Positions 7,380 to 63,474 are shown, counted from the stretch's first letter. The stretch: DNA of 64,000 nucleotides from an uncultured Gammaproteobacteria bacterium (GCA_964540825.1 CAZINT010000001.1:219396-283395), one strand, 5' to 3'. Translations and numbers: made by a program. The notes: generated by a model from the sequence alone, not told the origin.

Positions 7380-7408
7380 TTGACAAAAAATATTTTTTAT
7401 GCTTAGAT
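7380..7408 (+). promoter_or_regulatory. sigma70-like promoter for high-GC cassette A
   Basis: TTGACA (7380-7385), 17-nt spacer, TTAGAT (7403-7408). AGGAGG at 7441-7446 with GTG 6 nt downstream. Confidence 0.5.
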
Positions 7409-7452
7409 AAGGGCATCAACAATTCATGCGGCTTTGCCGCAGGAGGTCCAAA

Positions 7453-8205
7453 GTGGCGACGCACAATGCTCTCGGTGACCCCGATGGTCCAACCCCTCCC
7501 TATGAGGACACAGCGGAGCTTAAAATTCCGCCTTCGCTTCGTGTTCGAATCAAGCAGGGGTTGGGGTGGACCTACGAGGTCGTGCTCGTTCCGGTCTGGA
7601 ACCGTGGGTTGAAGCCGCTGACGTCACCCATCATCGTTCGGGTGCCCAGTGCCGTCTCGTTCATGCGGCAGCAGCGGTGGAACATCGCACTCTTCGCTGC
7701 TCTGCTCCTGGCTATCGTGCTTGCATACGTAGGTTACAAGTACGAGACTGCCCGCATGCGGGCTGCCTTCGTTCCGGCCGATCAGGGCGAGCACAGCACG
7801 GCGACACCTGTTGACCGTGATAGCGACGGTGTGGCGGACGAGACGGATCAGTGTCCCGATGTAGCGTCCGGCCCCACGCCGGATGCGAAGCGGCCCGGTT
7901 GCCCAGCGCCCGAGCAACCTGCTGCTCCGGTCCCGGTCTACCCTGACCTGTCGATCCCTGCGCCTGCCGCGTTGCCCGAAGAACCGCAAGCCGCTCCGCC
8001 CGCTGATGTGGATGGTGATCACGATGGGGAAGCGGCCGTCCCGTCCCGTCGACGTCACGTGCCGCATCGTAGGTTCAAGGCTGCGGTCGAGACGCCGCGG
8101 GCCTTCTGCCTGCGTATGCAGCGGGACCAGCGCTGGAGCCCCTGCTGCCAAGACGGCATCCCGGTCGCATGTTCGCCCGCTTCCTCAGCGCCCCATCGGC
8201 GCTAA
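7453..8205 (+). CDS. high-GC membrane/exported protein with thrombospondin-type-3-like Ca-binding motif (cassette A)
   Basis: GTG start 6 nt after AGGAGG, in frame with the track ORF at 7426. Internal TM helix WNIALFAALLLAIVLAYVGY. Motif DRDSDGVADETDQCPDV...KRPGCP matches the DxDxDGxxDxxDxCP...GCP TSP3/OmpA-linker repeat. Pro-rich. Near-saturated GC3. The C-terminal ~60 aa is Arg-rich and may be frameshifted. Confidence 0.4.
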   Translation: MATHNALGDPDGPTPPYEDTAELKIPPSLRVRIKQGLGWTYEVVLVPVWNRGLKPLTSPIIVRVPSAVSFMRQQRWNIALFAALLLAIVLAYVGYKYETARMRAAFVPADQGEHSTATPVDRDSDGVADETDQCPDVASGPTPDAKRPGCPAPEQPAAPVPVYPDLSIPAPAALPEEPQAAPPADVDGDHDGEAAVPSRRRHVPHRRFKAAVETPRAFCLRMQRDQRWSPCCQDGIPVACSPASSAPHRR

Positions 8206-8286
8206 CCCACGATAGCGTGGAAGAGTCGCGTGTGTTGGAGCTTTTCCGACCGCGCGACTTGCTTTGTTTTTAGCCCCACGAGGCCC

Positions 8287-8315
8287 TTGACAAAACCTTA
8301 AAAATGTGCTATACT
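8287..8315 (+). promoter_or_regulatory. consensus sigma70 promoter for cassette B
   Basis: TTGACA, 17 nt, TGTGC TATACT (extended -10). Followed by an AT-rich leader of about 345 nt before the ATG at 8668. Confidence 0.6.
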
Positions 8316-8667
8316 GATTTGTTACGTAAATAGAAAACCACACAACTAGCCAAGAAGCTCGAGAGAGGCTTCAAAGGTTAGCCAAAAGACCTTGTTTTAG
8401 CCAATTCTCTCACCCCAGGGAGTTTTTTTAGCTAAGAATGAACTAAGGTAAGCGGATTTAGATCCTTTTACCTTAGATCCATTCTAGGGTCTAACGCTCT
8501 TTACAATATAACCCTAGTTAAAAACCTACCCACCAATAATCGGTGAAGTATGGCGCAGAGAATGAGTTACCCAATATTGAGTCATTCATTCTCTGTTCCA
8601 GCTTCATTGTGAAGTTGGGGGAGCTGGAACGCTCAGAAACGTCAACCTTTTCGCTGGAGAAAAGATC

Positions 8668-9834
8668 ATGAACAGCAAGCTCGCCTTTGTCATCGCCATC
8701 CTCGCCGGCCTCTCGTCCACCTCCACCGCCCACGCCTTGAGCAGCGCCCACGACTTCGGTCTGGTCGTCCTGGGTCCCACGGACGAGCCCATCCCGTCGT
8801 GGGACGGGAACCCGGGGTCGATGACCCCGGCGAACGTCTGCAAGGCCGAGGGCAAGATCATGGCCCTTCAGGAGCCGACCGACAAGATCCGTGGTGGCGC
8901 CGTCGCTCAGGATGACCTGACGGCCCGGCGCGGCACGGTGTCGTCGCCCCAGAAGTCGATCGGGATCGTCGCGAACCGCAGCCAGATCGCCGGCAAGCAC
9001 GCCGGCGCCGCCTACTGCGTCGCGAAGTCCCGTGTCCTCTTCGCCGAGGACGTCGAGCAGCTGAACAAGCTCCTCAAGATCCTCCACAGCTTCAACGGCC
9101 CCGACGGCATGACGCGCCTCCGCGCCCTGCTCGGCGACCTGCCGCAGGGCAAGGAGACGATCCGCGAGTGGGTCACCGCCGCCATCACGGCGGGCGATCA
9201 GGGCACTAGCCTCGACTCGGCCAACCCCTTCAGCCCCCTCGCGATCAAGATCGCCCAGCTCATCGCCGAGATCAATCAGATCAAGGTCGAGCTCGAGGCG
9301 CTCAAGGCCCGCGTCGGCCAGCTCGAGACCGCGGTCGCAGAGCACTCGGCTCAGATCGCCAAGCTCCAGCAGACGGGCCCTGTGACCGGTCGGACCTTCG
9401 ATCTTCAGCTCCAGGGCATCGCGAGTGGCAGCCGGTTCATGATCGGTCTCGGCGGTGGTGCGAACCTCGTGTTCCACCTTCCTGTGCCGCGCCTCAGCGT
9501 CAAGTTCGGTGGCGACCTCATGGCCGCCTTCGAGACGGTCGGGTCCAATCGTATGGGCCTCGGCTGGGACGCGCGTGCGTTCGTCCAGTATCAGCTGCGT
9601 GAGTGGCTGACCATTGGCGGCGGGCTCTACATCGTCGGTGATGCTGGTACGATCAACGGTACCCGGTCGTTCGACGTTGGCCCTGCGCTGGACGCCGAGT
9701 TCTGGGTTCACCCGTTCGTCGCCGTCAACGCCTTCGCCTTCATCGGTGGTGGCAAGCACAGCGCCAGCTGGGCCATGTCGCAGCTGGGCGGTGGTGGCGG
9801 TCTCGGGGTCGTCCTGCGTCCCTTCCGCAAGTAG
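8668..9834 (+). CDS. high-GC secreted protein: signal peptide, central coiled coil, Gly-rich beta-rich C-terminal domain (cassette B)
   Basis: SD GGAGAAAAG 5-6 nt upstream. Signal peptide MNSKLAFVIAILAGLSSTSTAHA. Heptad-like IAQLIAEINQIKVELEALKARVGQLETAV. C-terminal alternating hydrophobic beta pattern. GC3 about 90% by eye. Confidence 0.5.
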   Translation: MNSKLAFVIAILAGLSSTSTAHALSSAHDFGLVVLGPTDEPIPSWDGNPGSMTPANVCKAEGKIMALQEPTDKIRGGAVAQDDLTARRGTVSSPQKSIGIVANRSQIAGKHAGAAYCVAKSRVLFAEDVEQLNKLLKILHSFNGPDGMTRLRALLGDLPQGKETIREWVTAAITAGDQGTSLDSANPFSPLAIKIAQLIAEINQIKVELEALKARVGQLETAVAEHSAQIAKLQQTGPVTGRTFDLQLQGIASGSRFMIGLGGGANLVFHLPVPRLSVKFGGDLMAAFETVGSNRMGLGWDARAFVQYQLREWLTIGGGLYIVGDAGTINGTRSFDVGPALDAEFWVHPFVAVNAFAFIGGGKHSASWAMSQLGGGGGLGVVLRPFRK

Positions 9835-9852
9835 CGGATAAACTAGGGTTCG

Positions 9853-9890
9853 GAGGGGAGCGGTGGACAGTAATGTCTGCCGCCCCCTCC
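9853..9890 (+). terminator. GC hairpin after cassette B (putative terminator)
   Basis: ggagggg...cccctcc inverted repeat immediately after the stop. No clear U-run. Confidence 0.35.
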
Positions 9891-9958: not shown

Positions 9959-9987
9959 TTGACAAAACCTCAAAAATATGGTATAGT
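9959..9987 (+). promoter_or_regulatory. consensus sigma70 promoter for cassette C
   Basis: TTGACA, 17 nt, TATAGT. About 230-nt AT-rich leader with a long imperfect hairpin (ggtttcgcggtt...aaccgcgaaccc) at 10112-10170. Confidence 0.6.
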
Positions 9988-10224
9988 ATGTCGTTATTAA
10001 ATACAGCAGGTGCTTAGGAGTAGCCCATTAAAAATGGTCTTCTCCTAGACACTTGGCTCTGCCAAAAGTCTACGTTCTTTACAATCACATTGCTACTACT
10101 CAAAATGTTCTCCTGAAGGTTTCGCGGTTATCAGTACTTACTAATTATTTGGTAAGGTACTGGAAACCGCGAACCCGCTGCGTGTCTTAGGACACGCAGC
10201 ACCCACGACCACCAGGAGATGAAC

Positions 10225-10938
10225 ATGAACACGAACCACGTCCGCGCCCTGCTCACCGCCGCCCTGCTCACGCTCGCCCCGACCTTCGTCGTGGGCTGTG
10301 CCCCCGAGCCGATGGACGGCACGCCGTCCACGGTCATCGGCGACCGCGACGGCGACGGCACCAAGGACAACGTCGACAAGTGCCCCGACCTCGCCGGGCC
10401 CGGCAGCAACAACGGCTGCCCGGTCACCAACATGAGCGGGGGCGAGCCCGTGCCCGCCACCCTCACCGACGCGATCTGCTACGATCGGGACCACCACTAC
10501 CCCCACGCCTGCGCGGGGGAGTGCGTGACCAAGGTCCAGGACTCGCTGAACTGCGGCGCCTGCGGCCGCCGGTGCAAGCCGACGGTCGAGGCCTGCGAGA
10601 ACAGCGTCTGCATCCCGGCCGGCTCCGCCAAGTGGGGCGCCTGGGTCCAGAACGCCACCAACCGCACCCTGAACCTCACGGTCGGCCACACCGAGCTCGG
10701 CATCAGCGCCGTCGAGGAGCAGATCACGCTCGCCCCCGGCGCCTGGTGGGGCAACGGCAACTGGACCGGCGTCTACGCCTCCGAGAACCCCTGGAAGGAG
10801 AACGTGATGCAGGAGTCCCTCGCGGACTGCCAGCTCAAGTTCAACGGCAAGGGCCGCCGCGAGGTCGTCTTCAAGACGAACAACCGCACCGGCGTCGGCC
10901 GCTGCGAGTTCAAGACCGACGCGGAGGGTAACCTCTAG
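10225..10938 (+). CDS. high-GC Cys-rich lipoprotein with TSP3-like Ca-binding motif (cassette C)
   Basis: AGGAG 6 nt upstream of the second ATG (10225). Lipobox-like FVVGC. IGDRDGDGTKDNVDKCPDLAGPGSNNGCP is a TSP3-type repeat. Multiple Cys pairs. Five N-x-T sequons. Confidence 0.5.
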   Translation: MNTNHVRALLTAALLTLAPTFVVGCAPEPMDGTPSTVIGDRDGDGTKDNVDKCPDLAGPGSNNGCPVTNMSGGEPVPATLTDAICYDRDHHYPHACAGECVTKVQDSLNCGACGRRCKPTVEACENSVCIPAGSAKWGAWVQNATNRTLNLTVGHTELGISAVEEQITLAPGAWWGNGNWTGVYASENPWKENVMQESLADCQLKFNGKGRREVVFKTNNRTGVGRCEFKTDAEGNL

Positions 10939-11143
10939 CCGGTCCGGTGCGACGAGTAGTAACAAGTGATTACCTACCCTGGTGGGCCCCGCACGACGAC
11001 TCGAAAGAGACGTCTACGCGGGGCCTGCCTTCTACTTCATACTCATAATCTCACCAGATTGTGGAGATACAGTAGAAATAAAATCCTACCAAAACATCCA
11101 CCCTTTCTCTCAAGGCTGGATGTTTTGTTTTTACTCCGACTGT

Positions 11144-11592
11144 AAGCAGGTTAGGCAGAGTAAGTACTAAGCAGAATAAGTTTTTATGTTAGATAATTTC
11201 TTTGGCTTTGTATCCAGCGGGTTAACAGCTTACCAACTTCTTCACACTGACTTCTTGCCTGATTATATTCTGATTCTTTTAGATAGTGTAAGTCGTGGGC
11301 GAGAATGAAGTGATATTTAGTTTCTTCGAGCGAAGCGTCAGCAATATTGTAAAATTTAATACTGTCTCGTAATTCTTTTCTTCTAAATCCTTCAACGATG
11401 TTAGTAGGTACTGAAGCAGCAGATCTTCGTATTTGGCTCGTTAAACCAAAGAGTTCGCTTTTTGGAAATTGGTTGGTAACTTTATAAACAAAAAGCACGA
11501 GCGTATGTGCCTTTTGCCAAACCTGTAATTCTGTAAAAACTTTTATTGTCGTCATGCTTATTCTGCTTAGGACTTACTCTGCCTAATCTGCT
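11144..11592. repeat. 37-bp inverted repeats (2 mismatches) bracketing the four-helix-bundle protein gene
   Basis: Left arm 11144-11180 aagcaggttaggcagagtaagtactaagcagaataag. Right arm 11556-11592 is its reverse complement apart from two mismatches. The arms abut the gene stop and start codons. Confidence 0.7.
11184..11555 (-). CDS. four-helix-bundle protein (23S rRNA intervening-sequence protein family, TIGR02436-like)
   Basis: 123 aa. LTSQIRRSAASVPTNIVEG and overall helical pattern typical of the family. Confidence 0.75.
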   Translation of the reverse strand: MTTIKVFTELQVWQKAHTLVLFVYKVTNQFPKSELFGLTSQIRRSAASVPTNIVEGFRRKELRDSIKFYNIADASLEETKYHFILAHDLHYLKESEYNQARSQCEEVGKLLTRWIQSQRNYLT

Positions 11593-11596
11593 TCGT

Positions 11597-15243: not shown

Positions 15244-15310
15244 TAAGCAGAGTAAGTACTAAGCAAAGTAAGTTTTGTGCTTACCTTGCTTACTCTGCCT
15301 AATCTGCTTA
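15244..15310. repeat. solo copy of the palindromic element seen at 11144-11592, between convergent genes
   Basis: taagcagagtaagtactaagcaaagtaag - ttttgtg - cttaccttgcttactctgcctaatctgctta. The arms are shortened versions of the 11144 and 11556 arms with no cargo gene. Confidence 0.6.
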
Positions 15311-32447: not shown

Positions 32448-32476
32448 TTGACAAAATGCTTAAAATGTGCTATACA
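32448..32476 (+). promoter_or_regulatory. consensus sigma70 promoter for cassette D (antisense to suf operon)
   Basis: TTGACA, 17 nt, TGTGC TATACA. The -35 element overlaps the sufC 5' end. Confidence 0.55.
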
Positions 32477-32567: not shown

Positions 32568-32816
32568 ATGTGGCTCTTTGATCGTTGGGGCGATTTGTTC
32601 CAGGTCAGCATACTGGCAGGAATTGCCGTCCTCCCGGTCGTGCTGGTTGCCTTTCTGGTTGTGATCCAGGTTGCGATCTTGATCGTTCGTCGCAGCTTCG
32701 GCACGTTGGAGTACGGTCTCCTCTTGGGGGCTGCTCTCGCCTTCATCTTCCCCAAGAGGTCGATCGCCGCGCTCATCGTAGCGGCGCTGCTTGTTGCCCT
32801 CACCCTCCATCACTAA
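32568..32816 (+). CDS. high-GC small membrane protein, 82 aa (cassette D)
   Basis: GGAGG 7 nt upstream of the ATG. Two to three TM helices. GC-rich codons. Confidence 0.4.
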   Translation: MWLFDRWGDLFQVSILAGIAVLPVVLVAFLVVIQVAILIVRRSFGTLEYGLLLGAALAFIFPKRSIAALIVAALLVALTLHH

Positions 32817-32834: not shown

Positions 32835-33242
32835 TTAGTTCGACCCGGTCTTCGTGACCGGGTTCGCTGTTTTTAAGCTATGCTGCAACGCCTTGAGACC
32901 CAGTAGGGCACAGCGCATGCGGGTTGGGTTTAGGTTTTTTAGGCCAAGTAAATCTAAAAGTGTTTCACCAGTTAGTTGCTCGATTTCTTGTTTGGTTTTA
33001 CCTTTGACATGTTCAGTAAGTAAGGAAGTGGCGGCTTGTGAAATGGCGCAGCCGTCGCCTTGGTAACCAATATCTTCCAGCCTATCACCGGCATCAAATT
33101 TAAGAAAGAGCTCGACTTTGTCGCCGCAGAGTGGATTGAATTCGACAAAACTGATATCAAAAACAGCCGGTCTTTTTTTGTTTAGCGGATGGCGATACAA
33201 ATCAAGGAGTAGTTCGGAATAAAGTTCTTGGTCAGTGTCCAT
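32835..33242 (-). CDS. sufU: SufU/IscU-type Fe-S scaffold
   Basis: NPLCGDKVEL ... GDGCAISQA motifs. Confidence 0.8.
   Translation of the reverse strand: MDTDQELYSELLLDLYRHPLNKKRPAVFDISFVEFNPLCGDKVELFLKFDAGDRLEDIGYQGDGCAISQAATSLLTEHVKGKTKQEIEQLTGETLLDLLGLKNLNPTRMRCALLGLKALQHSLKTANPVTKTGSN
32842..32875 (+). terminator. intrinsic terminator of cassette D
   Basis: gacccggtc-ttcgt-gaccgggtt then gctgttttt. Lies within the 3' coding end of sufU on the opposite strand. Confidence 0.55.
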
Positions 33243-37982: not shown

Positions 37983-38011
37983 TTGACAAAAGGTCTTTTT
38001 TGTGCTACACT
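37983..38011 (+). promoter_or_regulatory. consensus sigma70 promoter for cassette E
   Basis: TTGACA, 17 nt, TGTGC TACACT. About 200-nt AT-rich leader containing CGTTCTTTACAA. Confidence 0.55.
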
Positions 38012-38219
38012 ATTTGCGTCCTAGAATATAGGATAATCGTTCTTTACAAAGGAAATGATGAAGCAGGGCTCCCTGTTTGTGAGCGTTCCTGGTTACGAAG
38101 AAAGCTAATCTTAGCGGTTATTTTTCTCTGTAACGGGAGCTCCCCGGAGCTTAAAGTCTGGAATTCAGACTTTCCCTACTTCTCTTTCCTCAAAACTACA
38201 CACAGGAGTGTACGGTACA

Positions 38220-38804
38220 ATGTTCACCAAAAGTCTCCTCGCCGTGGTTCTGTTCACGCTTCTCGGTCTCTTGTCCTCGGCTCGTGCTGAATGTCACGCA
38301 GCGTCGGCAGGGCCCCACCACAGCATGGAAGTTGCTGTTAGCCTCGGATCTACGATTTGGGTCACTCACCCCGTAGAAGCCACCTTTGGTGCCGTACTCG
38401 GCATGCCGGTCAGCCACGATGGCTGCTGGTGGGTGCGCGGTGCCATCGAGCTCTACAAGCCGATCGGCAACCAGCCGCCTGGTTTCGCCGGCATTCTTTC
38501 GCTCACGCGGCGTATCAACCCCCGTTTGGAGCTTGGTGTTGCCGCCAGTGCCTTGTTGCCGTTTACGGAAGAGGCATACCACCACCCCGAAGAGGGGGCT
38601 GGGCTGCCGCCTCGTGAAGGTGTCATCCTTGTAGCTGGTCCGCAACTTCGCCTTCAGCCGACCGCGGCCTTTCCGACCATCGTCGTTACCCCCATGGGTG
38701 GTTACGAAATGAACGTCGGCAACGTGCTTGGTCTTTCGGTGGAGTTCGAGGCTGACCTCACTGGGGCCGTCTTCGACCTCGTGCACCGCCTGCGTCGCCA
38801 CTGA
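38220..38804 (+). CDS. high-GC secreted beta-rich protein (cassette E)
   Basis: Signal peptide MFTKSLLAVVLFTLLGLLSSARA. Alternating hydrophobic pattern suggests a beta fold. GC-rich. Confidence 0.45.
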   Translation: MFTKSLLAVVLFTLLGLLSSARAECHAASAGPHHSMEVAVSLGSTIWVTHPVEATFGAVLGMPVSHDGCWWVRGAIELYKPIGNQPPGFAGILSLTRRINPRLELGVAASALLPFTEEAYHHPEEGAGLPPREGVILVAGPQLRLQPTAAFPTIVVTPMGGYEMNVGNVLGLSVEFEADLTGAVFDLVHRLRRH

Positions 38805-38910
38805 CGCCACTTACTTTGTGTAGTTACTATCCAACGGGAGCTTCGGCTCCCCGGTTTCCAGAGTACAGAATTGACCTATTGTGTGTGCTGGCCGACCGTG
38901 CGCAAAAAGC

Positions 38911-51414: not shown

Positions 51415-51525
51415 TATAGATGAATTATTGAAGGGGCAATTACTTATCGCCTCAATAGTACCCCCGAAATGGTTTTGATTAACGTTGTCAGAATGTCGGG
51501 GTTGCATTCTGAGGTGGCTGTGCGC

Positions 51526-52872
51526 TCAGCGCCGGGTCAGGATGACGCGGAGGTTCTTGGGGGAAAGGCCGGTCGAGGCGTGCATACGAACACTCGCGGG
51601 GTCGATTACGCGGATGTTGAAGAGCGCGAGGGCCAGGCCGATGATGTAGCTTCCTTCAAGAAGGGCGAGCCGTTCGCCGAGGCAGTTCTGGGTGTCGTGC
51701 CAGAAGGGGTAGTAGTTCCACTTGGCCGGTTCGCCGCTATCAAACCGCTCCGGGGCGAATTGCTCGGGCCTATTCCAGTAGCGCGGGTCGCGGTGGGAGA
51801 GGAAGCTCGAGAAGAGCACGTTCGTCTTGGGCGGCAGGAGGTACGGGCCGAGCTCGGTCCAGTCCGCCGTGCTCCGCATGTTGAGCCAATTGGGCGGATA
51901 GAGGCGGAGCGACTCTTTGAGGACGAGCTTGAGGTCGCGGAAGCGGCTATCCTTGGCGAGGTTGGCCGAAGCGCCGCTCGTCAGGAGGTAGTTGCCGCAC
52001 TCCCGCGTGCGTGCCAGCCACTCAGCGTTGCCACTGAGCAACCAGAACGTTGAGGCGGCCATGCTGGCGGTGGTGACGTGGCCAGCGAAGACCGTGCTGA
52101 GCGCCAGGCTCTCGATGAGATTATCAGGCAGCTCCTGACCGTTTTGGCGGTCTTTGAGGAGGGCGCCGACGAGTCCGCTCGCGGATATGTCGCCGTGCTT
52201 GATGAGCGACTGAACGAGATCGTGGAGCCGCCGCTCTTCGTAGATGTATCGCCGGGACCGCTCGGTGAGCGGGAAGTTCCGGAGGAACAGGTGACTGAGG
52301 GGGTTCTGAAACCCGCGGGCCGACTCCTCAAACAGGAAGTTGAGTCCGTCGAGAAGATCCGCGTCGAGACCGCGCAGGCCCGAACTCCCGAACACGACGA
52401 CATCGAGGATGTCGAGCACGAGGAAGTTGCAGAGCTCCAAGAGGTCCACGGGCTTCCCGGTCGGCCACTTGTTGATCGTGGCGAGGATGCGTGTGTAGAT
52501 GTTGTCCATCATCGCCTTGAGGTTCGTACCGCCGAGCTGGGGGCCGAGTTTGCGGCGCTGGACAAGGTGGTTCGGTCCGTCGGTTGTGAAGATGGATTCA
52601 TTGCCGAGAATCGGCTTCATGATGCGGCGCACGAGGCTGGGGCGCACGAAGTTCTGGCTGGTCGAGATCTCGCTGAGGTCGTCGGGGCAGAGGGTGAGCA
52701 CCATCCGCATTGGCCAGTGAGCGAGGGTGACTCGCTCGCGAAGGACGGTGTTCCCGACCATGCCCGTGGCCCCGCGCAGATAGCGAAGCGGGTCGCGCTG
52801 CATTTCGCGCTGAAACGTGAGCAGCGGCACCAATCCGCCGTAGGCAGGTGGAAGGCGTTTTTTTCTCCCCAT
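51526..52872 (-). CDS. cytochrome P450 (atypical), high-GC cassette F
   Basis: 448 aa. I-helix FAGHVTTAS, K-helix ESLRLYPP (ExxR), FAPERF (PERF), Cys-pocket PFWHDTQNCLG (FxxGxRxCxG with the G and R substituted). AGGAGA upstream. GC3 near-saturated. Confidence 0.7.
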   Translation of the reverse strand: MGRKKRLPPAYGGLVPLLTFQREMQRDPLRYLRGATGMVGNTVLRERVTLAHWPMRMVLTLCPDDLSEISTSQNFVRPSLVRRIMKPILGNESIFTTDGPNHLVQRRKLGPQLGGTNLKAMMDNIYTRILATINKWPTGKPVDLLELCNFLVLDILDVVVFGSSGLRGLDADLLDGLNFLFEESARGFQNPLSHLFLRNFPLTERSRRYIYEERRLHDLVQSLIKHGDISASGLVGALLKDRQNGQELPDNLIESLALSTVFAGHVTTASMAASTFWLLSGNAEWLARTRECGNYLLTSGASANLAKDSRFRDLKLVLKESLRLYPPNWLNMRSTADWTELGPYLLPPKTNVLFSSFLSHRDPRYWNRPEQFAPERFDSGEPAKWNYYPFWHDTQNCLGERLALLEGSYIIGLALALFNIRVIDPASVRMHASTGLSPKNLRVILTRR

Positions 52873-52983
52873 GGGCTTGTTTCTCCTTGTCCGTATATAG
52901 CACTAACCGACCATAGCATAAGGCGAATATGGCCGCAACTGCCCCAGTTGCCCTCCTAAAACTGCTGTGCTATAGTCAAAAAC

Positions 52984-55366: not shown

Positions 55367-55680
55367 TTGCCATTGGTGTCGTTTTTCGAATTCCCCTGCT
55401 CGGTCATTCCCGCGCAGGCCTGTCAGGTAGGCAGGCGGGAATCGAGGGCTCCTGACACATAGCCTGCTTGTTACCTTTTTGACAGCAAAAAGGTAACCGA
55501 AAAACTGTCCGAGCTATTGTTCGCTTCCTCGTACTGCCACAGCTCGTTTTCACTGCGACACTAAAACTCGTTTCACTCAAACATTAGTGTCGCTGCAAAG
55601 CACCGTTCAAACTCGCTGGGCCAGTACGGGTCGCGCCCAAGTGCTCGGAGTAGTGAAGTGAGTAAGGTGTTTGGTTTTTA

Positions 55681-56121: not shown

Positions 56122-56143
56122 AAAAGTATAGCATTCTCGTTTT

Positions 56144-56178
56144 AAAAACGAAAGCCCCTAGGTCCGTAGACCTAGGGG
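56144..56178 (-). terminator. intrinsic terminator of cassette G
   Basis: Minus strand: cccctaggtc-tacg-gacctagggg then ctttcgttttt. Confidence 0.65.
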
Positions 56179-56199
56179 TTGTGGGGGGGGGTGCGGCCC

Positions 56200-56670
56200 C
56201 TAACGCAAGCCCGGCGCCTCGCACTGGAGGTAGCCGTCGTGCGGGACGACGACGAGCCCCCTTTGGCAGGATTGCCTGCACTCGTAGCTGCCGCCGACCA
56301 AGTCGACGACCCACGGGGGACGGCAGGCCTTGTCCGCGTTCGGGTCGGCGTACAGGCCGGATGGGATCGGCGGGGTCTGGTGGTTGTTCCGGCATTCCAT
56401 GGCGTTCATGGCGCCGGTTCCAGGGATTGGCAGCTCGATGTAGCCCGGCGGACAGCTCATGAGCGGCTGACCCTGCTCATCGGTCATGAGCTGGTAGGCC
56501 TGGGTCGCTGGGTGCGCCAGGTAGCGACCCGGCGCGGACACCCACTTGTACAGGGTCTGCCGCGGGTTGGGCGATGGCGGCCGGGTGAAATCGCTGCCGC
56601 TGCTGTACGTCTCCGCACAGCCGGCCATCATCATGGCGCACAAAAGAACGGTGTAAAGAGCGTATCGCAT
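56200..56670 (-). CDS. high-GC Cys-rich lipoprotein (cassette G)
   Basis: Lipobox MMAGC. 156 aa, 10 Cys. GGAAGGAAG SD upstream. Confidence 0.45.
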   Translation of the reverse strand: MRYALYTVLLCAMMMAGCAETYSSGSDFTRPPSPNPRQTLYKWVSAPGRYLAHPATQAYQLMTDEQGQPLMSCPPGYIELPIPGTGAMNAMECRNNHQTPPIPSGLYADPNADKACRPPWVVDLVGGSYECRQSCQRGLVVVPHDGYLQCEAPGLR

Positions 56671-56756
56671 AGGTTTCTTCCTTCCTTTTTTGCAGGTCTG
56701 TTGCTTCTTTTAGGTTTAGCTATAGTAAGCCTAAAAGAAGCAGCAAACCACCCATC

Positions 56757-56785
56757 AGCATAGCATATTTTTGCACTTTTGTCAA
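56757..56785 (-). promoter_or_regulatory. consensus sigma70 promoter for cassette G
   Basis: Minus strand: TTGACA, 17 nt, TATGCT, with upstream sequence aaaatatgc. Confidence 0.55.
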
Positions 56786-56867
56786 TGGTATTTTTGGGCT
56801 AAGCTGCTCGGTTTTAACCATTTTAACTATTTGCACTGTTATTGGGTTTTTAGTATACTAGCGGTCT

Positions 56868-57155
56868 ATGAGCCTTACACCTGAAGAAATTACCAAAGTA
56901 GCTACCCTCGCGCGTTTAAGCGTAACGCCTGAGGAAGCCGTTCGCTATGCTGAAACAATCTCGGCTGTTTTAGAGTACATGACCATTTTAAACGAAGTTG
57001 ATACCTCGGCTGTTGAGCCGACGTTTCAAGTAACCGGGCTTGCCGATGTGCTCCGAGATGATGTTGCTGCCGCGTCCCAAGTGGGAGAAAAATTGATCGA
57101 ACAATTTCCTCAAGCAGAAAAAAATTCTTTGGTTGTGCCGGCTGTTTTTGAATAA
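56868..57155 (+). CDS. gatC: Asp-tRNA(Asn)/Glu-tRNA(Gln) amidotransferase subunit C
   Basis: 95 aa; LARLSVTPEE. Confidence 0.8.
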   Translation: MSLTPEEITKVATLARLSVTPEEAVRYAETISAVLEYMTILNEVDTSAVEPTFQVTGLADVLRDDVAAASQVGEKLIEQFPQAEKNSLVVPAVFE

Positions 57156-57164
57156 GTATATTTT

Positions 57165-58595: not shown

Positions 58596-58603
58596 TATTT
58601 TGT

Positions 58604-59956
58604 ATGGCTCGTACTACTGCCACACCTATTCCTGACAAAGAAATTACGCCTATCAATCCGACGCATACCGCCGGTAAAGCAGTTAACTACCGTGACAGCT
58701 GGCGTATTTTTAAAATCATTGCGGAGTTTGTCGAAGGGTATCAGTTTTTGAGCAAACTGGAGCGTGAAGTAACTATTTTGGGTTCTGCCAGGCTTAACTC
58801 GAATAATAAATATTACAAAATTGCCGAGCGCCTGGGTAAGTTACTGGCAAAGGCAGGCTTTACGGTGATTACCGGTGGAGGCCCGGGTATAATGGAAGCA
58901 GCCAACCGCGGGGCTTTTGAAGCAGGCGGCGAAAGCATTGGTTTGAATATTGAATTGCCGTTTGAGCAGCGTATTAACCCATATGTAAAAAAAGCGATCG
59001 CTTTTGAATATTTTTTTACGCGCAAAGTAATGCTCACGTCGCCAGCAAATGCCTTTGTGTATTTCCCGGGCGGCTTTGGAACGATGGATGAATTGTTTGA
59101 AGTCATGGACTACATGGAGCAGGGATATATGGTGCGTTCACCAATTGTGCTGGTGGGGCGAGAGTTTTGGCAGCCGTTGGTAAAATTTTTACGCCATCAA
59201 GCCGCGGAGACAATTCATTCAGCCGAAATAACGGATATTGATTTTTTATTTTTAGTCGACACTGCCGAAGAAGCTTTTGATTTAATTAAAAATGCCGGAG
59301 ACAGGCCGAATGTCGGCGAGGTTCACGAAGAAGGCGGGCCGTTTTATAACGATGGTACGGGTTGGCGCGTGTTTCGTATGATGGCCGAACTGGTTGATGG
59401 CTTTGAATTTTTGACGCAGATCGATCGCGATGTAACTATTTTTGGAACGAAAAGTATTGCCCCCGGTTCTACTTATTACGAAGCAGCCTATACCGTCGGC
59501 AAAAAATTAGCTGAAAATGGCTTTAGTGTTATTACCGGGGGCGGCCCGGGTATTATGGAGGCGGCCAACAAAGGCGCGTACGAAGCAGGAGGGGAAAGCG
59601 TTGGTGTCGGTATGCAGCTCAACGGTAAAGACCGGATTAATAGCTATGTAACAAAATCAAAAAGTTTTTATTTTCCATTCATCCGAAAACTCATCATCAC
59701 CTCACCATCGGATGAATTTATTTTTTTCCCCGGCGGGTTTGGTACGCTGCACCAGCTGTTTGAATTATTGACCCTGCAAGAAACCAAAAAAATTGAACCA
59801 ATTTCAACGCTTTTGTACGGCAAAGAATATTGGCAGCCGCTGATGGATTTTATTCATTCACTTTATAATGTCTACGGTACGATTAGTGAGATGGATGAAG
59901 ATTTTATCAAAGTCATCAGTTCTCCGGAAGAAGTGCTCAGGTACATGGGAAGCTAA
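58604..59956 (+). CDS. tandem LOG-family (TIGR00730) protein, two fused LOG domains
   Basis: ITGGGPGIMEAAN and PGGFGT occur twice, about 225 aa apart. Confidence 0.8.
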   Translation: MARTTATPIPDKEITPINPTHTAGKAVNYRDSWRIFKIIAEFVEGYQFLSKLEREVTILGSARLNSNNKYYKIAERLGKLLAKAGFTVITGGGPGIMEAANRGAFEAGGESIGLNIELPFEQRINPYVKKAIAFEYFFTRKVMLTSPANAFVYFPGGFGTMDELFEVMDYMEQGYMVRSPIVLVGREFWQPLVKFLRHQAAETIHSAEITDIDFLFLVDTAEEAFDLIKNAGDRPNVGEVHEEGGPFYNDGTGWRVFRMMAELVDGFEFLTQIDRDVTIFGTKSIAPGSTYYEAAYTVGKKLAENGFSVITGGGPGIMEAANKGAYEAGGESVGVGMQLNGKDRINSYVTKSKSFYFPFIRKLIITSPSDEFIFFPGGFGTLHQLFELLTLQETKKIEPISTLLYGKEYWQPLMDFIHSLYNVYGTISEMDEDFIKVISSPEEVLRYMGS

Positions 59957-60815: not shown

Positions 60816-61079
60816 ATGACTTGGTACATATATATACTTTTAAGTCAATCCAAACTCCATTGGTATATTGGTTCATCTGGCAATCTGCCGGATAGACTTC
60901 GTCGTCATAATGGTGGAATGAGTAAAAGCACCAAACCGTATAGACCGTGGAATATGGTATACACAGAATCCTTCAATACTTTGTCTGAAGCGGTACGAAG
61001 GGAGCGGTATTTAAAATCACCTCAAGGGTATAAGGAGTATCAACAAATAAAAAATAACATTCTTGGAGAGTTCGCATAG
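60816..61079 (+). CDS. small GIY-YIG nuclease-family protein (YhbQ/UPF0213-like)
   Basis: YIYILLSQSKLHWYIGSSGNLPDRLRRHNGG. The last 5 codons are encoded by the 5' end of tRNA-Ser. Confidence 0.7.
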   Translation: MTWYIYILLSQSKLHWYIGSSGNLPDRLRRHNGGMSKSTKPYRPWNMVYTESFNTLSEAVRRERYLKSPQGYKEYQQIKNNILGEFA

Positions 61080-61150
61080 TTGGTCTAGTGCGCACGCTTG
61101 GAAAGCGTGTATACCGAAAGGTATCGAGGGTTCGAATCCCTCACTCTCCG
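61065..61150 (+). tRNA. tRNA-Ser (anticodon GGA)
   Basis: Acceptor ggagagt/actctcc; anticodon stem cacgc/gcgtg; loop ttGGAaa; long variable arm tatacc-gaaa-ggtata; T-arm gaggg-ttcgaat-ccctc; discriminator G. Confidence 0.8.
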
Positions 61151-61224
61151 CATCTTGAAAATCGTAGTTGAAAGCGTGTTGCAAATGGGCGCATAATGGA
61201 CACTATTTATTTTGTAAAAATAAA

Positions 61225-61656
61225 ATGTTCAGCTCTATCTATCAATTAGGCGACAAACTGGAAGATAAGGTGCGGGGCTGGTGCAGTCATCGCCCGATTA
61301 CGTATGCGTTTATCGGCGGCTTTGGCGTGGTAGTTTTTTGGCGAGGAGCATGGAATACGGTCGATTTTCTTATGAGCCATTTTTTCGGTTCTGGCGGCGG
61401 TGAAACGTTGCTTTGGTGGGATGGGCCGCTTTCCCTCGCAGTGGGTTCGGCTATTACGCTTGCGACCGGTTTATTTGTGTCCAATTTTATCGGTAACGAA
61501 ATTATTATTTCCGGGCTGCGCGGACAAAAGAAATTAGTGGAAAAAACTGAGGCGGAAATTATTTCGGAAGTAGAAACAATTGAAGAAATTCATACGGATG
61601 TTCATGCGATGGCCAAACAAGTGCAGCATATTGAAAAAACAGTTGCAAAGGAGTAG
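61225..61656 (+). CDS. hypothetical membrane protein
   Basis: Two TM helices and a coiled C-terminus. The track start at 61168 is too close to the tRNA, so the internal ATG is preferred. Confidence 0.35.
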   Translation: MFSSIYQLGDKLEDKVRGWCSHRPITYAFIGGFGVVVFWRGAWNTVDFLMSHFFGSGGGETLLWWDGPLSLAVGSAITLATGLFVSNFIGNEIIISGLRGQKKLVEKTEAEIISEVETIEEIHTDVHAMAKQVQHIEKTVAKE

Positions 61657-61777
61657 TTCTGGTACTAGTTAAAAATAAAATTCAGCTGCGCTACCGCGAC
61701 TACCTCATTTCGAGTGAGGTAGTTTGAATATGTGGTATAGTATGAAAAATTCATACAAGGTGATTGATTAAAATGAT

Positions 61778-62026
61778 ATGACTAAAAAAGAATCCGGCCG
61801 ATTGCCGCATGTGCTGCCTGCGGATTTTAAAAAGGCTATTGCTACAACCCCCTCTGTCCAGGCGCTGTGGGACGATATTAGCCCGCTCGCGCGTAACGAG
61901 TGGATTTGTTGGGTAACGTCCGGCAAAAAAGCGGAGACGCGCGATATTCGTATTGAGAAAGGTATCTCAAAGATGAAAGGTGGCATGCGGAGGCCGTGCT
62001 GTTGGCCAGGGTGTCCGCATCGGTAA
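61778..62026 (+). CDS. YdeI/OmpD-associated family protein
   Basis: LARNEWICWVTSGKK...RRPCCWPGC C-terminal signature. Confidence 0.55.
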   Translation: MTKKESGRLPHVLPADFKKAIATTPSVQALWDDISPLARNEWICWVTSGKKAETRDIRIEKGISKMKGGMRRPCCWPGCPHR

Positions 62027-62050
62027 GTTGTTTGAAAATATATCGTACTA

Positions 62051-62080
62051 AAAATTTCCTTAGCGGAAATTTTTTTATTT
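62051..62080 (+). terminator. intrinsic terminator
   Basis: aaatttcc-ttagc-ggaaattt then tttttatttt. Confidence 0.55.
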
Positions 62081-62082
62081 TA

Positions 62083-62136
62083 AAAAATAGTTTAAAAAAG
62101 AAGAAGCCCCCGACACGACGAAGCGTGTCGGGGGCT
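62083..62136 (-). terminator. intrinsic terminator of cassette H
   Basis: Minus strand: agcccccgacac-gcttcgtc-gtgtcgggggct then tcttcttttttaaactatttttt. Confidence 0.65.
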
Positions 62137-62166
62137 GAGGAGGAAAGAGCGGGGGTAGGCGGGGAG

Positions 62167-63315
62167 CTAGCCGCCGTAGGAGTAGACGATCGGCCTGAGC
62201 GGGAGGGTCTGGCCCGAGGCGGTCAGACCCGCGAGAACTCCGTCACTCCAGCTGATGCCGTTGTTCGGCACGCTGACCTCGAGGCTCTGTGCCCCGCCGG
62301 TCCCGAAGTCGGTGGTGTCGAACGTGCACGTGATGGTCTTGCTCTGACCAGAGGAGATGGTGGAGGCGATGGGGAGGTTCAGGTTCCCGTTGATGGGGTC
62401 GCCCTTCCTGTAGAGGTGGCTACCGATCAGCGAGCCGTTCGAGTAGCACGCCAGCAGCCGGTCGTTGTTGACATTCTCGATGCTCGACTTCAGCGCGAGC
62501 TTCAGCGAGCTGACCGGGGTCGTGTAGTTGCCGTTGTTCAGGACGTTGGTGACGACGACCTTCACGATCGTCTGGGTCGCAGAGGGCGACGACGGACCTT
62601 TGGGGCTGTCGCTGGCCCACTCGACCCCGATCTTGGCGCGGTAGGTGGTGGCCGTGGCCGCGTGTGCCCCGAGCGCTGGGGACCCGGTCTTGTTGTCCTT
62701 GACGACCACCTTCAGCGTCTGCGCGGTCTTGACGTTCACCGCGGTGATTGGGGTGAAGTTCTCGAGCGGGGCGAGGATGGCCGGGGTGGCCTGCTGTCCG
62801 GTGGTGGTGAACCCCTCGTTGTAGTCGGCGATGTCGACCAGCTGGCTGATGTAGCGGCAGCTGTTGTTGGGCACGAACAGGTTGAGGTTGGGGTTGATCG
62901 CGTGGCTGTAGCCCGCCGCGATCTCCTGGCCGTTCACGTACTGCTCGAAGTTGGCCGCGGTCGCGCCGATGGGCGCCCCGTTCTCGTCGATGTACCGCGC
63001 GTTGCGGAAGATGGGCGGCTGCATGCCGTTGTAGCGCAGCGAGCTGATCACCTTCTCGAGGCGTCCACCGGCCTCCGGCGTGCCCGTCACGCAGATGGTG
63101 TAGGTGGCGACCTTGACGCCGATGGCGCCCATGACGTAGTTGGTGGGGCCGGGCGTGCTCTGATCGATCGCGACCGTGAGCGTGCCCGGGTTCTCGTAGT
63201 CGGGCAGGTTGAGGGTCGGGACCGGCTTGTCCGGCTCGTCGCCGGTCACCATCCCGCCGCAGCCGAAGGCGGCGGTGAGGGCCAGGATCATGAGGTGCTT
63301 GTGCATCTGCTTCAC
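62167..63315 (-). CDS. high-GC beta-rich lipoprotein, 382 aa (cassette H)
   Basis: Lipobox AAFGCGG. GAAGGAG SD 8 nt upstream. Thr/Asn/Gly-rich beta pattern. GC3 near-saturated. Confidence 0.5.
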   Translation of the reverse strand: MKQMHKHLMILALTAAFGCGGMVTGDEPDKPVPTLNLPDYENPGTLTVAIDQSTPGPTNYVMGAIGVKVATYTICVTGTPEAGGRLEKVISSLRYNGMQPPIFRNARYIDENGAPIGATAANFEQYVNGQEIAAGYSHAINPNLNLFVPNNSCRYISQLVDIADYNEGFTTTGQQATPAILAPLENFTPITAVNVKTAQTLKVVVKDNKTGSPALGAHAATATTYRAKIGVEWASDSPKGPSSPSATQTIVKVVVTNVLNNGNYTTPVSSLKLALKSSIENVNNDRLLACYSNGSLIGSHLYRKGDPINGNLNLPIASTISSGQSKTITCTFDTTDFGTGGAQSLEVSVPNNGISWSDGVLAGLTASGQTLPLRPIVYSYGG

Positions 63316-63445
63316 TCCTTCTTCGAAGTTGGACTAGGACATTCTCCAAAGCTGTTGCCAGCCTGGAAAAAAAGGCTTAGGCAGCATTTTTTTCAAAGCT
63401 CGAACAATTTCTAAAGTTGAACGACATTGTTTTAGGCGAAAATTA

Positions 63446-63474
63446 TTTCTAGCACAAAATTGCCGATGTGTCAA
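63446..63474 (-). promoter_or_regulatory. sigma70-like promoter for cassette H
   Basis: Minus strand: TTGACA, 17 nt, TGTGC TAGAAA. About 150-nt AT-rich leader. Confidence 0.45.

Follow-up and report, generated by a model that had tools for sequence, protein, structure and literature searches.

Eight GC-rich ORFs, most of them apparently in conserved expression sites, in a Patescibacteria chromosome

We analysed a window of 64,000 nt whose backbone is a Patescibacteria chromosome near Magasanikbacteria, that is, of a tiny bacterium of the candidate phyla radiation, which fits the epibiont-type host guessed at in an earlier note made from the sequence alone. The backbone has a moderate GC content of 45%. 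Ordinary genes of the window show a GC of 0.43–0.50 and a GC3 of 0.35–0.57, and a type III R-M island, together with some small ORFs, falls below this range. The low-GC R-M island adjoins a tRNA, and this genome therefore does take up foreign DNA. All eight GC-rich ORFs (A–H) described earlier were found at or near the positions proposed; their summed length is 6,426 nt, 10% of the window. All of them are compositional outliers, and no window gene falls between the GC-rich and ordinary classes.

Table 1 Positions, composition and predicted properties of the GC-rich ORFs and their flanking elements.
Feature	Position	Strand	GC	GC3	Remarks
Promoter of A	7380..7408	+			TTGACA, 17 nt, TTAGAT; read from sequence
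ORF A	7453..8205	+	0.65	0.69	One TM helix, TSP3-like Ca-binding motif, Arg/Pro-rich tail
Terminator of A	8225..8271	+			Hairpin plus T-run
Promoter of B	8287..8315	+			TTGACAAAA...TGTGCTATACT; conserved in L093
Leader of B	8316..8667	+			Structured, AT-rich; fold z-score -6.2
ORF B	8668..9834	+	0.67	0.88	Signal peptide, coiled coil, Gly-rich beta-rich C-terminal domain; ORFan
Hairpin after B	9852..9890	+			GC-rich, no clean U-tract
Promoter of C	9959..9987	+
Leader of C	9988..10224	+			Structured; fold z-score -8.6
ORF C	10225..10938	+	0.70	0.99	Lipoprotein, TSP3 repeat, Cys-rich module; ORFan
Terminator hairpin of C	10981..11029	+			Conserved in L093
Promoter of D	32448..32476	+
ORF D	32568..32816	+	0.58	0.74	82-aa hydrophobic membrane protein
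Terminator of D	32842..32874	+
Promoter of E	37983..38011	+
Leader of E	38012..38219	+			Structured, conserved; fold z-score -3.6; YTCTTTACAA motif at 38038-38049
ORF E	38220..38804	+	0.61	0.67	Signal peptide; beta-rich small protein
Hairpin after E	38836..38852	+			Short, GC
Hairpin after F	51488..51512	-			Conserved in L090
ORF F	51526..52872	-	0.63	0.84	Cytochrome P450 (Pfam PF00067, E=2e-31); EXXR and Cys-ligand motifs
Candidate promoter of F	52910..52938	-			TTGCGG, 17 nt, TATGCTATGGT; conserved in L090
Terminator of G	56144..56178	-
ORF G	56200..56670	-	0.66	0.86	Cys-containing lipoprotein
Promoter of G	56757..56785	-			Conserved in L090
Terminator of H	62094..62136	-
ORF H	62167..63306	-	0.66	0.95	379-aa lipoprotein; ORFan
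Candidate promoter of H	63445..63474	-

The compositional contrast is real but had been overstated in strength. Near-saturated GC3 holds for C and H, not for the other six ORFs, and the flanks and leaders (GC 0.41–0.45) are poorer in GC, as claimed, but belong to a host of moderate rather than AT-rich composition. A, D, and E barely exceed the backbone at 4-fold sites (GC4 0.63–0.71 against 0.55–0.62); D, which lies antisense within the suf gene cluster, is a weak outlier with a GC4 of 0.71. The codon-position GC signal of A switches near 7966–8055, and this ORF looks partly degenerate and is possibly decaying. The long ORFs antisense to the GC-rich genes, marked by a GC1 of 0.80–0.94, are artefacts, as had been supposed. 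In the 4-fold boxes of 17 of 18 GC-rich ORFs from different loci and genomes, codons ending in C are more numerous than those ending in G, whereas the backbone shows the opposite preference, and the coding strand of the GC-rich ORFs is C-rich (skew -0.03 to -0.16). Amino-acid usage is shifted to GC-encoded residues in most of the proteins. In both codon and amino-acid usage, the GC-rich ORFs resemble genes of genuine high-GC bacteria and are qualitatively unlike the backbone.

Likelihood change-points placed the 5′ GC step from 52 nt upstream to 57 nt inside the ORF and the 3′ step 4–112 nt beyond the stop codon, with the terminator hairpin included, so that the GC boundaries match start and stop codons only approximately, not exactly as first described. 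The promoters belong to a general host consensus, which was also found upstream of backbone genes and a tRNA (13092, 36932, and 44952); the versions at F and H are weaker than this consensus. An SD, AGGAGG, precedes the GTG at 7453 of ORF A. Of the intrinsic terminators attributed to every ORF, those of A, D, G, and H have a hairpin plus a T-run, those of B and C are strong hairpins but lack a clean U-tract, and those of E and F are weak. An exported or membrane product had likewise been claimed for each ORF, but F is a cytochrome P450 without a signal peptide. The motif YTCTTTACAA occurs 12 times (0.65 expected), and 11 of these occurrences sit in the leaders of 11 GC-rich ORFs, including CGCTCTTTACAA at 8495–8506 in the leader of B and CGTTCTTTACAA at 10073–10084 in that of C, which may reflect common regulation of these ORFs. 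In the predicted fold of the C leader, the SD and start codon are masked by a helix. The leader of E had no match in Rfam; it shows 93% identity to relative L001 and shares conserved blocks and compensatory changes with relative L002.

Logan contigs were 100% identical to the window at 51090–52901, 61123–63478, and 55604–59407, the last coming from a different sequencing run than the other two, and thereby reproduced the junctions of F, G, and H. The same architecture was also present in two other MAG assemblies (one with two contigs), JGI metagenome contigs, and the L002 MAG. An assembly chimera or engineered construct, for which the sharp compositional boundaries are the sole supporting point, is excluded because the assemblies of two runs match across the F, G, and H junctions, and three other MAGs or metagenomes share the architecture; its likelihood is negligible and the sequence is authentic.

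GC-rich ORFs occupy the same loci in four related genomes. Promoter, structured leader, SD, start codon, and the C terminator are 83–93% identical to those of relatives, whereas the ORFs framed by them, F excepted, are unalignable or 25–38% identical to their counterparts. L093 is 83% identical over window 8251–8614, and in pairwise alignment the homology extends through the ATG of B; the leader of C is 83–87% identical to that of L093 as far as ATGAA. Overall, 83–87% identity to L093 spans the B and C intergenic regions, taking in the SD, the ATG, and the terminator of C, and divergence sets in no more than a few nt from the start codon. Beyond it the B and C ORFs are unalignable with those of L093, although B retains 25% identity and a collinear architecture with its positional ortholog. 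Between the C-type ORFs of three genomes, a Cys-rich motif and a CAPEP stretch are all that is shared. At the position of A, L093 carries GC-rich ORFs of similar architecture, and in L092 three GC-rich ORFs occupy the A–B–C locus. In both the window and L092, a bAvd-like 23S-rRNA-IVP gene adjoins the A–B–C array.

At the E locus, flanking genes are 85–87% identical to L001 but the ORF shows only 27% amino acid identity; L002 carries a GC-rich ORF of the same family there. The positional homolog of G in sibling L090 shows 38% amino acid identity between flanks 79–85% identical. In contrast, the L090 ortholog of F is intact at 92% amino acid identity, and by sequence comparison F is an ordinary vertical ortholog. 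H, which lies 1 kb from tRNA-Ser, was not found at this position in L090, the only relative compared, and looks like an ordinary recent acquisition. Positional counterparts showed no cross-frame similarity. The idea of native promoter and leader modules with exchangeable ORFs thus fits very well, as siblings keep the promoter, leader, SD, and start codon while the ORF differs. The B, C, E, F, and G loci, on the other hand, contradict a very recent transfer, because relatives diverged at 50–60% of neutral sites have GC-rich ORFs there.

Since divergence and GC excess both coincide with the ORFs, GC-biased hypermutation targeted in situ to coding regions, DGR-like or polymerase-driven, might be considered, also in view of the bAvd-like gene beside the array. 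However, in strain L091, 97% identical overall, E is 98.1% identical (11 of 585 nt differ); 8 of its codon changes are synonymous and 3 nonsynonymous, a lower rate per codon than that of the flanking genes. E thus undergoes no hypermutation in situ, which largely refutes this explanation. The conservation of F and the lack of cross-frame similarity also speak against it, no template/variable repeat pair was found in the window, and no reverse-transcriptase domain was found among the ORFs scanned. We regard it as very improbable.

The best explanation is that the eight ORFs are genuine resident genes, most of them in fixed expression sites whose frame is conserved among related species. We tentatively propose (probability roughly 0.45) that ORFs are exchanged among relatives at these resident sites and that their GC-rich, C-ending codons are actively maintained. 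High-GC bacteria probably supplied the ORFs, or ancestors of them, to the lineage long ago. Divergent alleles would then be swapped among relatives, we infer, via homologous recombination in the conserved flanks, and the exported, host- or phage-facing proteins are probably under diversifying selection. A putative force limited to the coding sequence would uphold the high G+C, specifically the C-ending codons; selection on synonymous sites is one candidate and biased gene conversion a less likely one. If so, the GC-rich ORFs form a class of genes under maintenance rather than products of recent foreign insertion or of assembly error.

The ultimate origin of these ORFs is probably foreign, to judge from codon and amino-acid usage, P450 affinities, and sub-threshold matches of modules to Myxococcus-named families. 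The best-matching families, all below threshold, were the MXAN_6577 Cys-rich family and the TraA/TraB TSP3 families. The nearest relatives of F are 27–31% identical and lie in contigs uniformly of 63–70% GC. These observations would also suit recurrent, ORF-precise capture from a high-GC partner (host or prey, perhaps a Myxococcota-like diderm), with the ORFs young and unameliorated: GC3 is 0.95–0.99 in C, H, and the L092/L093 counterparts, as for fresh DNA of ~70% GC, codon and amino-acid usage resembles that of high-GC bacteria, the sub-threshold TSP3/OmpA-type, MXAN-like Cys-rich, and beta-rich C-terminal domains are typical diderm envelope features, P450 relatives are confined to high-GC contigs, divergence starts a few nt from the start codon, and H is missing from the sibling compared. 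However, no donor was identified, since no homologs of B, C, or H were found in 1.8–5.8 billion representative proteins or plasmids, a collection that took in assemblies of the same sequencing runs. Counterparts also keep architecture or family (B collinear at 25%, E-family members at 31%, and G at 38% identity), and F is a plain vertical ortholog. We found neither a common motif at the boundaries that would mark a recruitment system nor any attC-like site, integrase, or repeat. Repeated capture behind native modules, as suggested earlier, agrees with conserved modules holding different ORFs, yet it is not the best-supported reading, and we consider it possible but rather unlikely.

Resident sites with actively maintained codons are favoured over passive decay by the persistence of high GC at the loci compared. 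The C-type ORFs have a GC4 of 0.96–0.99 in three genomes whose backbone 4-fold identity is 0.41–0.43, whereas under the backbone substitution process GC4 would not exceed 0.77 even if the ancestor had been 100% GC (P<1e-11 for each C-type ORF), assuming a single ancestral occupant of the locus for all three ORFs. Active upkeep is proposed because neutral decay would have erased the excess. For F, the orthologs have a GC3 of 0.84 and 0.81 and a GC4 of 0.83–0.87 against the 0.765 predicted even for a starting GC of 100%. The two orthologs agree at a fraction of 0.736 of 4-fold sites, compared with 0.482 over 1,869 backbone sites and a neutral prediction of 0.46 (P=5e-18), and synonymous divergence amounts to roughly half the backbone value; F stands at the top of the per-gene backbone range (0.36–0.73), not beyond it. 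This low divergence would also be expected if the two lineages had exchanged F later.

Ordinary ancient transfers, ameliorating passively, would turn the GC3 series from 0.99 to 0.67 into a series of ages, with neither maintenance nor exchange. The graded GC3, with A, D, and E near the backbone at 4-fold sites, and the uptake of foreign DNA attested by the R-M island agree with this, and rough decay arithmetic would fit E in the window and L001. Plain amelioration is compatible with A, D, and E. Nevertheless, passive decay of an old transfer is rejected for the C-type ORFs, if orthologous, which remain GC-saturated across near-saturated neutral divergence, and is disfavoured for F; it also leaves unexplained why divergence is confined to ORFs beside conserved flanks. 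It could be saved for the C-type ORFs only if they were independent recent arrivals, which is again recurrent capture. Overall, we consider it improbable.

In the amelioration model, horizontally acquired genes or islets are recognised by atypical composition. The ORFs here are likewise atypical in GC, GC3, codon usage, and amino-acid composition, H is strain-specific near a tRNA, and the P450 has its nearest relatives in high-GC genomes. Unlike acquired islets, however, the anomaly ends at the ORF and terminator between native, conserved flanks, the B, C, E, F, and G loci are occupied in relatives across near-saturated synonymous divergence, the GC excess lacks the predicted decay, and donors and mobility genes were not found. 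In Neisseria minimal mobile elements, capsule/O-antigen loci, and surface-antigen genes, cassettes are exchanged by homologous recombination in conserved flanks. Conserved flanks, non-homologous or saturated content, sharp boundaries, and exported or surface products are shared with these systems. The unit here, in contrast, is a single ORF from 1–2 codons past the start codon, the frame consists of elements of the gene itself (promoter, structured leader, SD, ATG, and terminator), and the codon usage of all alleles is foreign to the genome. Single-ORF units in tandem (A–B–C) with a hairpin 3′ of each recall integron gene cassettes, but the window has no attC-like conserved motif or integrase, every ORF has its own promoter and long leader, and the hairpins are ordinary terminators, one of them belonging to the conserved frame.

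In Borrelia vls, hypervariable surface-protein coding sequence is likewise far richer in GC than the genome (49% vs 28.6%), an excess that must be actively maintained according to the authors (PMC11499132). There, arrays of promoterless silent cassettes are ~90% identical to one expression site, and the coding strand is strongly G-rich (skew +0.52) (PMC11499132); here every ORF is preceded by a promoter of its own, the window contains no silent copies, and the coding strand is C-rich. GC-biased gene conversion raises the GC3 of recombining bacterial genes, most strongly at synonymous sites, with small mean shifts between gene classes (PMC4450053). Elevated GC3 at synonymous sites is common to both, but here GC3 reaches 0.85–0.99 beside flanks of 0.45 and the effect stops at the start codon. 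Biased conversion fits less well because it should neither favour C over G, as is seen in the GC-rich ORFs, nor end at the start codon.

Gene composition in the window was bimodal in a mechanical gene call. The ordinary genes, referred to here as the backbone, had a GC content of 0.43-0.50 and a GC3 of 0.35-0.57, and eight ORFs (A-H; 6,426 nt in total, 10% of the window) had a GC content of 0.58-0.70 and a GC3 of 0.67-0.99. The sliding-window composition check proposed in the earlier note likewise set these ORFs apart as eight GC peaks of 0.57-0.71 above a background of ca. 0.45, and their codon usage and composition were atypical for the genome, as expected of a horizontally acquired island. 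GC3 was saturated in C (0.99) and H (0.95), 0.84-0.88 in B, F, and G, and 0.67-0.74 in A, D, and E, whose GC content at 4-fold sites (GC4; 0.63-0.71) hardly exceeded that of the backbone (0.55-0.62). Near-saturated GC3, previously ascribed to all eight, therefore applies to C and H only. By a likelihood change-point, the position of the 5' GC step ranged from 52 nt ahead of the ORF to 57 nt within it, and that of the 3' step from 4 to 112 nt beyond the stop codon, terminator stem included. The boundaries are therefore ORF-scale and, contrary to the earlier note, not exact. The long antisense ORFs showed a GC1 of 0.80-0.94, in agreement with the view that they are artefacts.

Features of the window and their counterparts in related contigs.
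Feature	Position (strand)	Description
A	7453-8205 (+)	one TM helix, TSP3-type motif, low-complexity tail; frame signal wavers
B	8668-9834 (+)	signal peptide, coiled coil, Gly-rich beta-rich C-terminal domain
C	10225-10938 (+)	lipoprotein, TSP3 motif, Cys-rich module
D	32568-32816 (+)	82-aa membrane peptide
E	38220-38804 (+)	signal peptide and small beta-rich protein
F	51526-52872 (-)	cytochrome P450 without signal peptide (PF00067, E=2e-31)
G	56200-56670 (-)	lipoprotein
H	62167-63306 (-)	lipoprotein
Tail of A	7966-8205	last third of A, Arg/Pro/Ser-rich, low complexity
E leader	38012-38219; L001 2643-2830; L002 6128-6346	
Motif (CG)YTCTTTACAA, window	8495-8506; 10073-10084; 38038-38049	
Motif (CG)YTCTTTACAA, relatives	L093 5415, 6922; L092 4963, 5758, 6660; L001 2666; L002 6155; L091 970	
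Three large ORFs	634-7334	443, 723, and 1061 aa
bAvd-like gene	11184-11555 (-)	four-helix protein, GC 0.36
Short inverted repeats	11152-11184 / 11573-11593	
Second repeat pair	15244-15309	
Ferredoxin	30305-30679	single-cluster Fer4_13/15
Reductase	36936-37640	FNR-like FAD/NAD reductase
tRNA-Glu(CUC)	45003-45075	
Low-GC island	45251-50760	GC 0.30-0.39; type III R-M
Mod	45251-47221	
Res	47230-49842	
GIY-YIG ORF	60816-61079	nuclease domain
Logan matches, SRR11567528	51090-52901; 61123-63478	100% identical contigs
Logan match, SRR11567520	55604-59407	100% identical contig

Among the backbone gene products are Suf, Mur ligases, PBP2, GpsA, BipA, GatCA, and Lgt. BipA showed 96% identity with that of MAG contig L001 and 82% identity with that of L002, a Candidatus Magasanikiibacteriota MAG, and its nearer relatives were all from Patescibacteria. 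The co-assembly MAGs deposited as TPA entries (L001, L003, L004, L090, and L092) are titled 'uncultured Gammaproteobacteria bacterium' but are plainly Patescibacteria from their gene content and similarity to the window. The window is contained in a 416-kb NCBI contig. Contigs from Logan (assemblies of sequencing runs) for two runs were 100% identical to the window across the junctions of F, H, and G. Therefore, the chimeric or engineered origin considered in the earlier note is excluded.

To compare the loci among relatives, one to three related contigs were used per locus, with none for D. At the E locus, L001 aligned with the window in the upstream genes (87% identity), the promoter-leader region (93%), and bipA (85%), but not in the 0.7 kb separating the leader from bipA. 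The ORF at this site was a different, GC-rich one (GC3 0.69) with 27% protein identity to E. L002 had the same layout with an ORF of GC3 0.84, 31% identical to that of L001; in this set of three sequences, E of L001 was thus nearer to E of L002 than to that of the window, although the window is the closer genome, a weak hint that allele and genome genealogies differ. On L090, a contig from the same MAG as L001, the F ortholog was intact (92% amino acid identity, GC3 0.81), and the G site, whose promoter and leader were conserved, held a 135-aa lipoprotein (38% identity, GC3 0.82). H was missing from L090, in which tRNA-Ser and an MFS gene come immediately after lgt. In the window, a segment of ca. 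340 nt with a small GIY-YIG nuclease-domain ORF separates lgt from tRNA-Ser(GGA); L090 lacks this segment.

L092 and L093, located via the neighboring GHL15 protein, carried three (GC3 0.85-0.96) and four (GC3 0.66-0.97) GC-rich ORFs, respectively, at the A-B-C locus; those at the position of A in L093 were of similar architecture. The promoters and leaders of B and C were 83% identical between the window and L093. In pairwise alignment, this homology extended past the Shine-Dalgarno (SD) sequence, the ATG, and the following 2-4 nt, and returned at the C terminator hairpin ca. 40 nt past the stop codon; the DNA of the ORFs themselves was unalignable. B and its L093 counterpart shared the same architecture and a collinear 25% match (E=3e-4), and the C-type proteins had only a Cys-rich motif in common. 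Both the 52 GC-rich nucleotides that precede C and the GC-rich C terminator are part of the conserved frame (promoter, leader, SD, ATG, and terminator) and are not donor remnants. Conserved flanks enclosing unrelated or saturated sequence were thus seen at E, G, B, and C. Siblings carried GC-rich ORFs at the positions of B, C, E, F, and G, and among the compared loci only H was missing, in the one sibling examined. These comparisons indicate that the GC-rich ORFs are resident, lineage-conserved loci in which the regulatory frame is the conserved unit and the ORF the variable one. Near bipA in more distant Patescibacteria, no comparable island was seen except a modest one in L021.

Directly upstream of the A-B-C array lie three large ORFs of normal GC content in which no Pfam domain was found; L092 and L093 have equally unannotated large counterparts, one of them with a DnaJ domain. 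On its other side, the array adjoins a bAvd-like (23S-rRNA-intervening-sequence) gene that is also present in L092. This gene lies between short inverted repeats, and a second repeat pair is found 4 kb off, after the GHL15 gene.

Every GC-rich ORF had its own promoter. The consensus (TTGACAAA, 17 nt, TRTGSTATACT) also occurred upstream of backbone genes and a tRNA and is the general promoter of the organism, in line with the earlier note. The leaders of B, C, and E were 205-350 nt long with a GC content of 0.41-0.45, and their predicted structure was far stronger than that of shuffled sequences (z = -6.2, -8.6, and -3.6, respectively); in the C leader, a predicted helix covers the SD and start codon. 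The E leader (ca. 200 nt) forms a predicted multi-helix structure and was more conserved (93%) than the adjacent genes, and blocks and several compensatory pairs were kept in distant L002 (three sequences). No Rfam family covered the three leaders at gathering or permissive thresholds; the matches near the GC-rich ORFs were sub-threshold and apparently unrelated. When metagenomes were scanned for the pattern of the E-type leader, the one match was unrelated. The E leader is a candidate new cis-regulatory RNA.

The leaders were alignable with one another only at the promoter and a short motif. This decamer, YTCTTTACAA, occurred 12 times against 0.65 expected in the 341 kb of the window and siblings (both strands counted), and 11 of the 12 sites fell 110-290 nt ahead of the ATG in the leader of a GC-rich ORF; three of these leaders, from L092, had nothing else in common with the window leaders. 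The motif was unpaired in all three predicted folds. A second -35 element was rejected, as judged by reading, because no consistent -10 follows; the motif could be a binding site for a protein or sRNA, or a processing site. The shared motif appears to define a regulatory class comprising, as a minimum, the genes of the A-B-C array and those of the E type.

Several processes that might generate such ORFs in place were considered. E was 98.1% identical to its counterpart in L091, a strain 97.3% identical overall, with eight synonymous and three nonsynonymous codon differences; synonymous differences per codon were 0.041 in E and 0.083 in the flanking genes. In-situ hypermutation was rejected since E changes less than its flanks. 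Frameshift-driven divergence was also rejected because no cross-frame similarity was observed, and the ORFs contained no homopolymer phase-variation tracts. Export alone does not account for the GC excess, since GC3 is normal in backbone genes for membrane or exported products (PBP2, Wzy, a sulfatase-family protein, GHL15, and the three large ORFs preceding A). In 4-fold boxes, C/(C+G) was 0.54-0.78 for 17 of 18 GC-rich ORFs of the window and relatives, indicating a preference for C-ending codons, whereas the backbone prefers G-ending ones (0.45). CTC was mostly more frequent than CTG in these ORFs; P450 homologs of true high-GC genomes favored CTG over CTC. This C-ending signature is common to loci and genomes and is no mere GC-shifted backbone, and it is not predicted by unbiased GC conversion.

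The GC excess was then compared with neutral decay. Between the window and L001/L090, 4-fold identity was 0.482 in the backbone (1,869 sites) and 0.736 in F (239 sites). A reversible substitution model, fitted on the backbone sites, would require an ancestor of F with negative A and T frequencies, which is impossible; even a 100% GC ancestor gives a predicted GC4 of 0.765 and identity of 0.46, against the observed 0.84 and 0.736 (P=5e-18). By our own arithmetic, F has, after correction for composition, roughly half the synonymous divergence of the backbone. However, per-gene backbone identities span 0.36-0.73, and F was therefore possibly exchanged later between lineages. Between the window and L092/L093, backbone identity was 0.41-0.43 (random, 0.28), and a pure-GC ancestor would yield a GC4 of at most 0.77. 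The C-type ORFs had a GC4 of 0.96-0.99 in three genomes (P<1e-11 each against the prediction), and H and the first L092 ORF had 0.93 and 0.95, respectively. Thus, the GC excess has not faded as neutral decay predicts in the C-type ORFs, if these are orthologous, and less clearly in F.

Compositional outliers are usually taken for recent horizontal transfers whose signal weakens over time. In the present case, only coding sequence is anomalous, and the anomaly recurs at the five compared loci in species with nearly saturated neutral divergence. That GC4 has stayed at 0.83-0.99 implies either a maintaining force acting on coding sequence only or repeated fresh import. We tentatively favor maintenance by a coding-restricted force, with a probability of roughly 0.45. 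Recurrent capture would also renew the GC excess but appears less likely, because each site keeps its family and architecture, donors are not visible even in the same runs, and F behaves like a vertically inherited gene whose synonymous sites are constrained. A dedicated system, in which fixed sites marked by YTCTTTACAA take whole coding sequences from a high-GC partner with start-codon precision, is improbable. If true, it would provide an epibiont with renewable host-like envelope proteins and reveal the identity of the host. As to site-specific recruitment, shared end motifs and repeats were absent, and the ORFs scanned included no integrase domain.

The ORF-confined saturated divergence, the ordinary divergence of the frame, and the normal short-term evolution fit deeply diverged alleles that would be swapped via homologous recombination in the flanks, which recombination would homogenize as far as the heterologous sequence begins. 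Diversifying selection acting on the exported products is the likely driver. What is implied is either foreign-looking codon usage maintained in an apparently co-regulated, mostly exported set, or an unrecognized renewal of ORFs at fixed sites. Either reading bears on surface diversification in ultra-small episymbionts with reduced genomes, on the safety of GC-based HGT detectors in them, and possibly on host identification. The leader motif and the conserved structured leaders offer handles for experiments and genome-wide searches.

Among known systems, the pattern would be most like flank-mediated allelic cassette loci of the minimal mobile element or antigen-locus type. The vls cassettes of Borrelia likewise have coding GC far above the genome (49% within 28.6%) and are considered actively maintained (PMC11499132). 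However, the silent vls cassettes are ca. 90% identical to the expression site and have a G-rich coding strand, whereas silent cassettes are lacking here, the window ORFs share no repeats beyond the TSP3 motif, and their coding-strand skew is negative. Biased gene conversion raises the GC3 of recombining bacterial genes (PMC4450053), but reaches neither the degree nor the sharpness seen here. Integron cassettes are promoterless, driven from Pc, and accompanied by IntI; the GC-rich ORFs have their own promoters, the attC core was unmatched, no 8-mer was common to at least three of the 5' or 3' flanks, and the 3' hairpins are dissimilar terminators. DGRs need a reverse transcriptase and a TR/VR pair with adenine-specific differences, and the window had neither an RT domain among the ORFs scanned nor a TR/VR-like repeat, the bAvd-like gene being the only such component. 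A recent genomic island would share the atypical composition, but five of the loci are occupied in siblings. The pattern thus does not fit integrons, DGRs, or a recent genomic island. A literature search turned up no account of such a pattern in CPR.

With respect to mobility, H is situated 1 kb away from tRNA-Ser, and F adjoins an R-M island downstream of tRNA-Glu; no integrase or transposase domain was found among the ORFs scanned, and flanking direct repeats were absent. This low-GC island, which directly follows the tRNA, encodes Mod, Res, and a DUF5655 protein, and the sibling differs downstream of F.

Protein searches identified no donor taxa for B, C, and H, and relatives of F were at most 31% identical, in contrast to a recent island with homologs in a donor lineage. 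Beyond short motifs, a set of 5.8 billion clustered proteins contained no homolog of C or H, an exhaustive search of 1.84 billion representatives gave none for B, and tblastn found none of the three in plasmids. A, D, E, and G were compared with Pfam and NCBIfam. A PDB sequence search gave a single match, between the TSP3 motif of C and a chain of the OmpA family, and C gave a sub-threshold match to MXAN_6577-like proteins. The translations of C, G, and H, read by eye, have signal peptides ending in a lipobox Cys (VVGC, MAGC, and AFGC, respectively). An AlphaFold model of B from its single sequence was unusable (mean pLDDT 37). The ultimate origin of the ORFs is probably foreign, judging from amino acid and codon composition, P450 neighbors, and modules of diderm-envelope type. 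In A, the codon-position GC signal shifts frame around 7966-8055, which suggests a frameshifted or decaying gene.

Export or membrane location, proposed for every ORF, did not hold for F. F scored 109.7 bits against PF00067 (cut-off, 22.8), and its translation contains ESLR (EXXR) and the Cys-ligand loop FWHDTQNCLG. To our knowledge, P450s are uncommon in this bacterial group. The closest relatives were 27-31% identical, and the three inspected were all on contigs of uniformly 63-70% GC. The FNR-like reductase and the ferredoxin encoded in the window could be redox partners of F.
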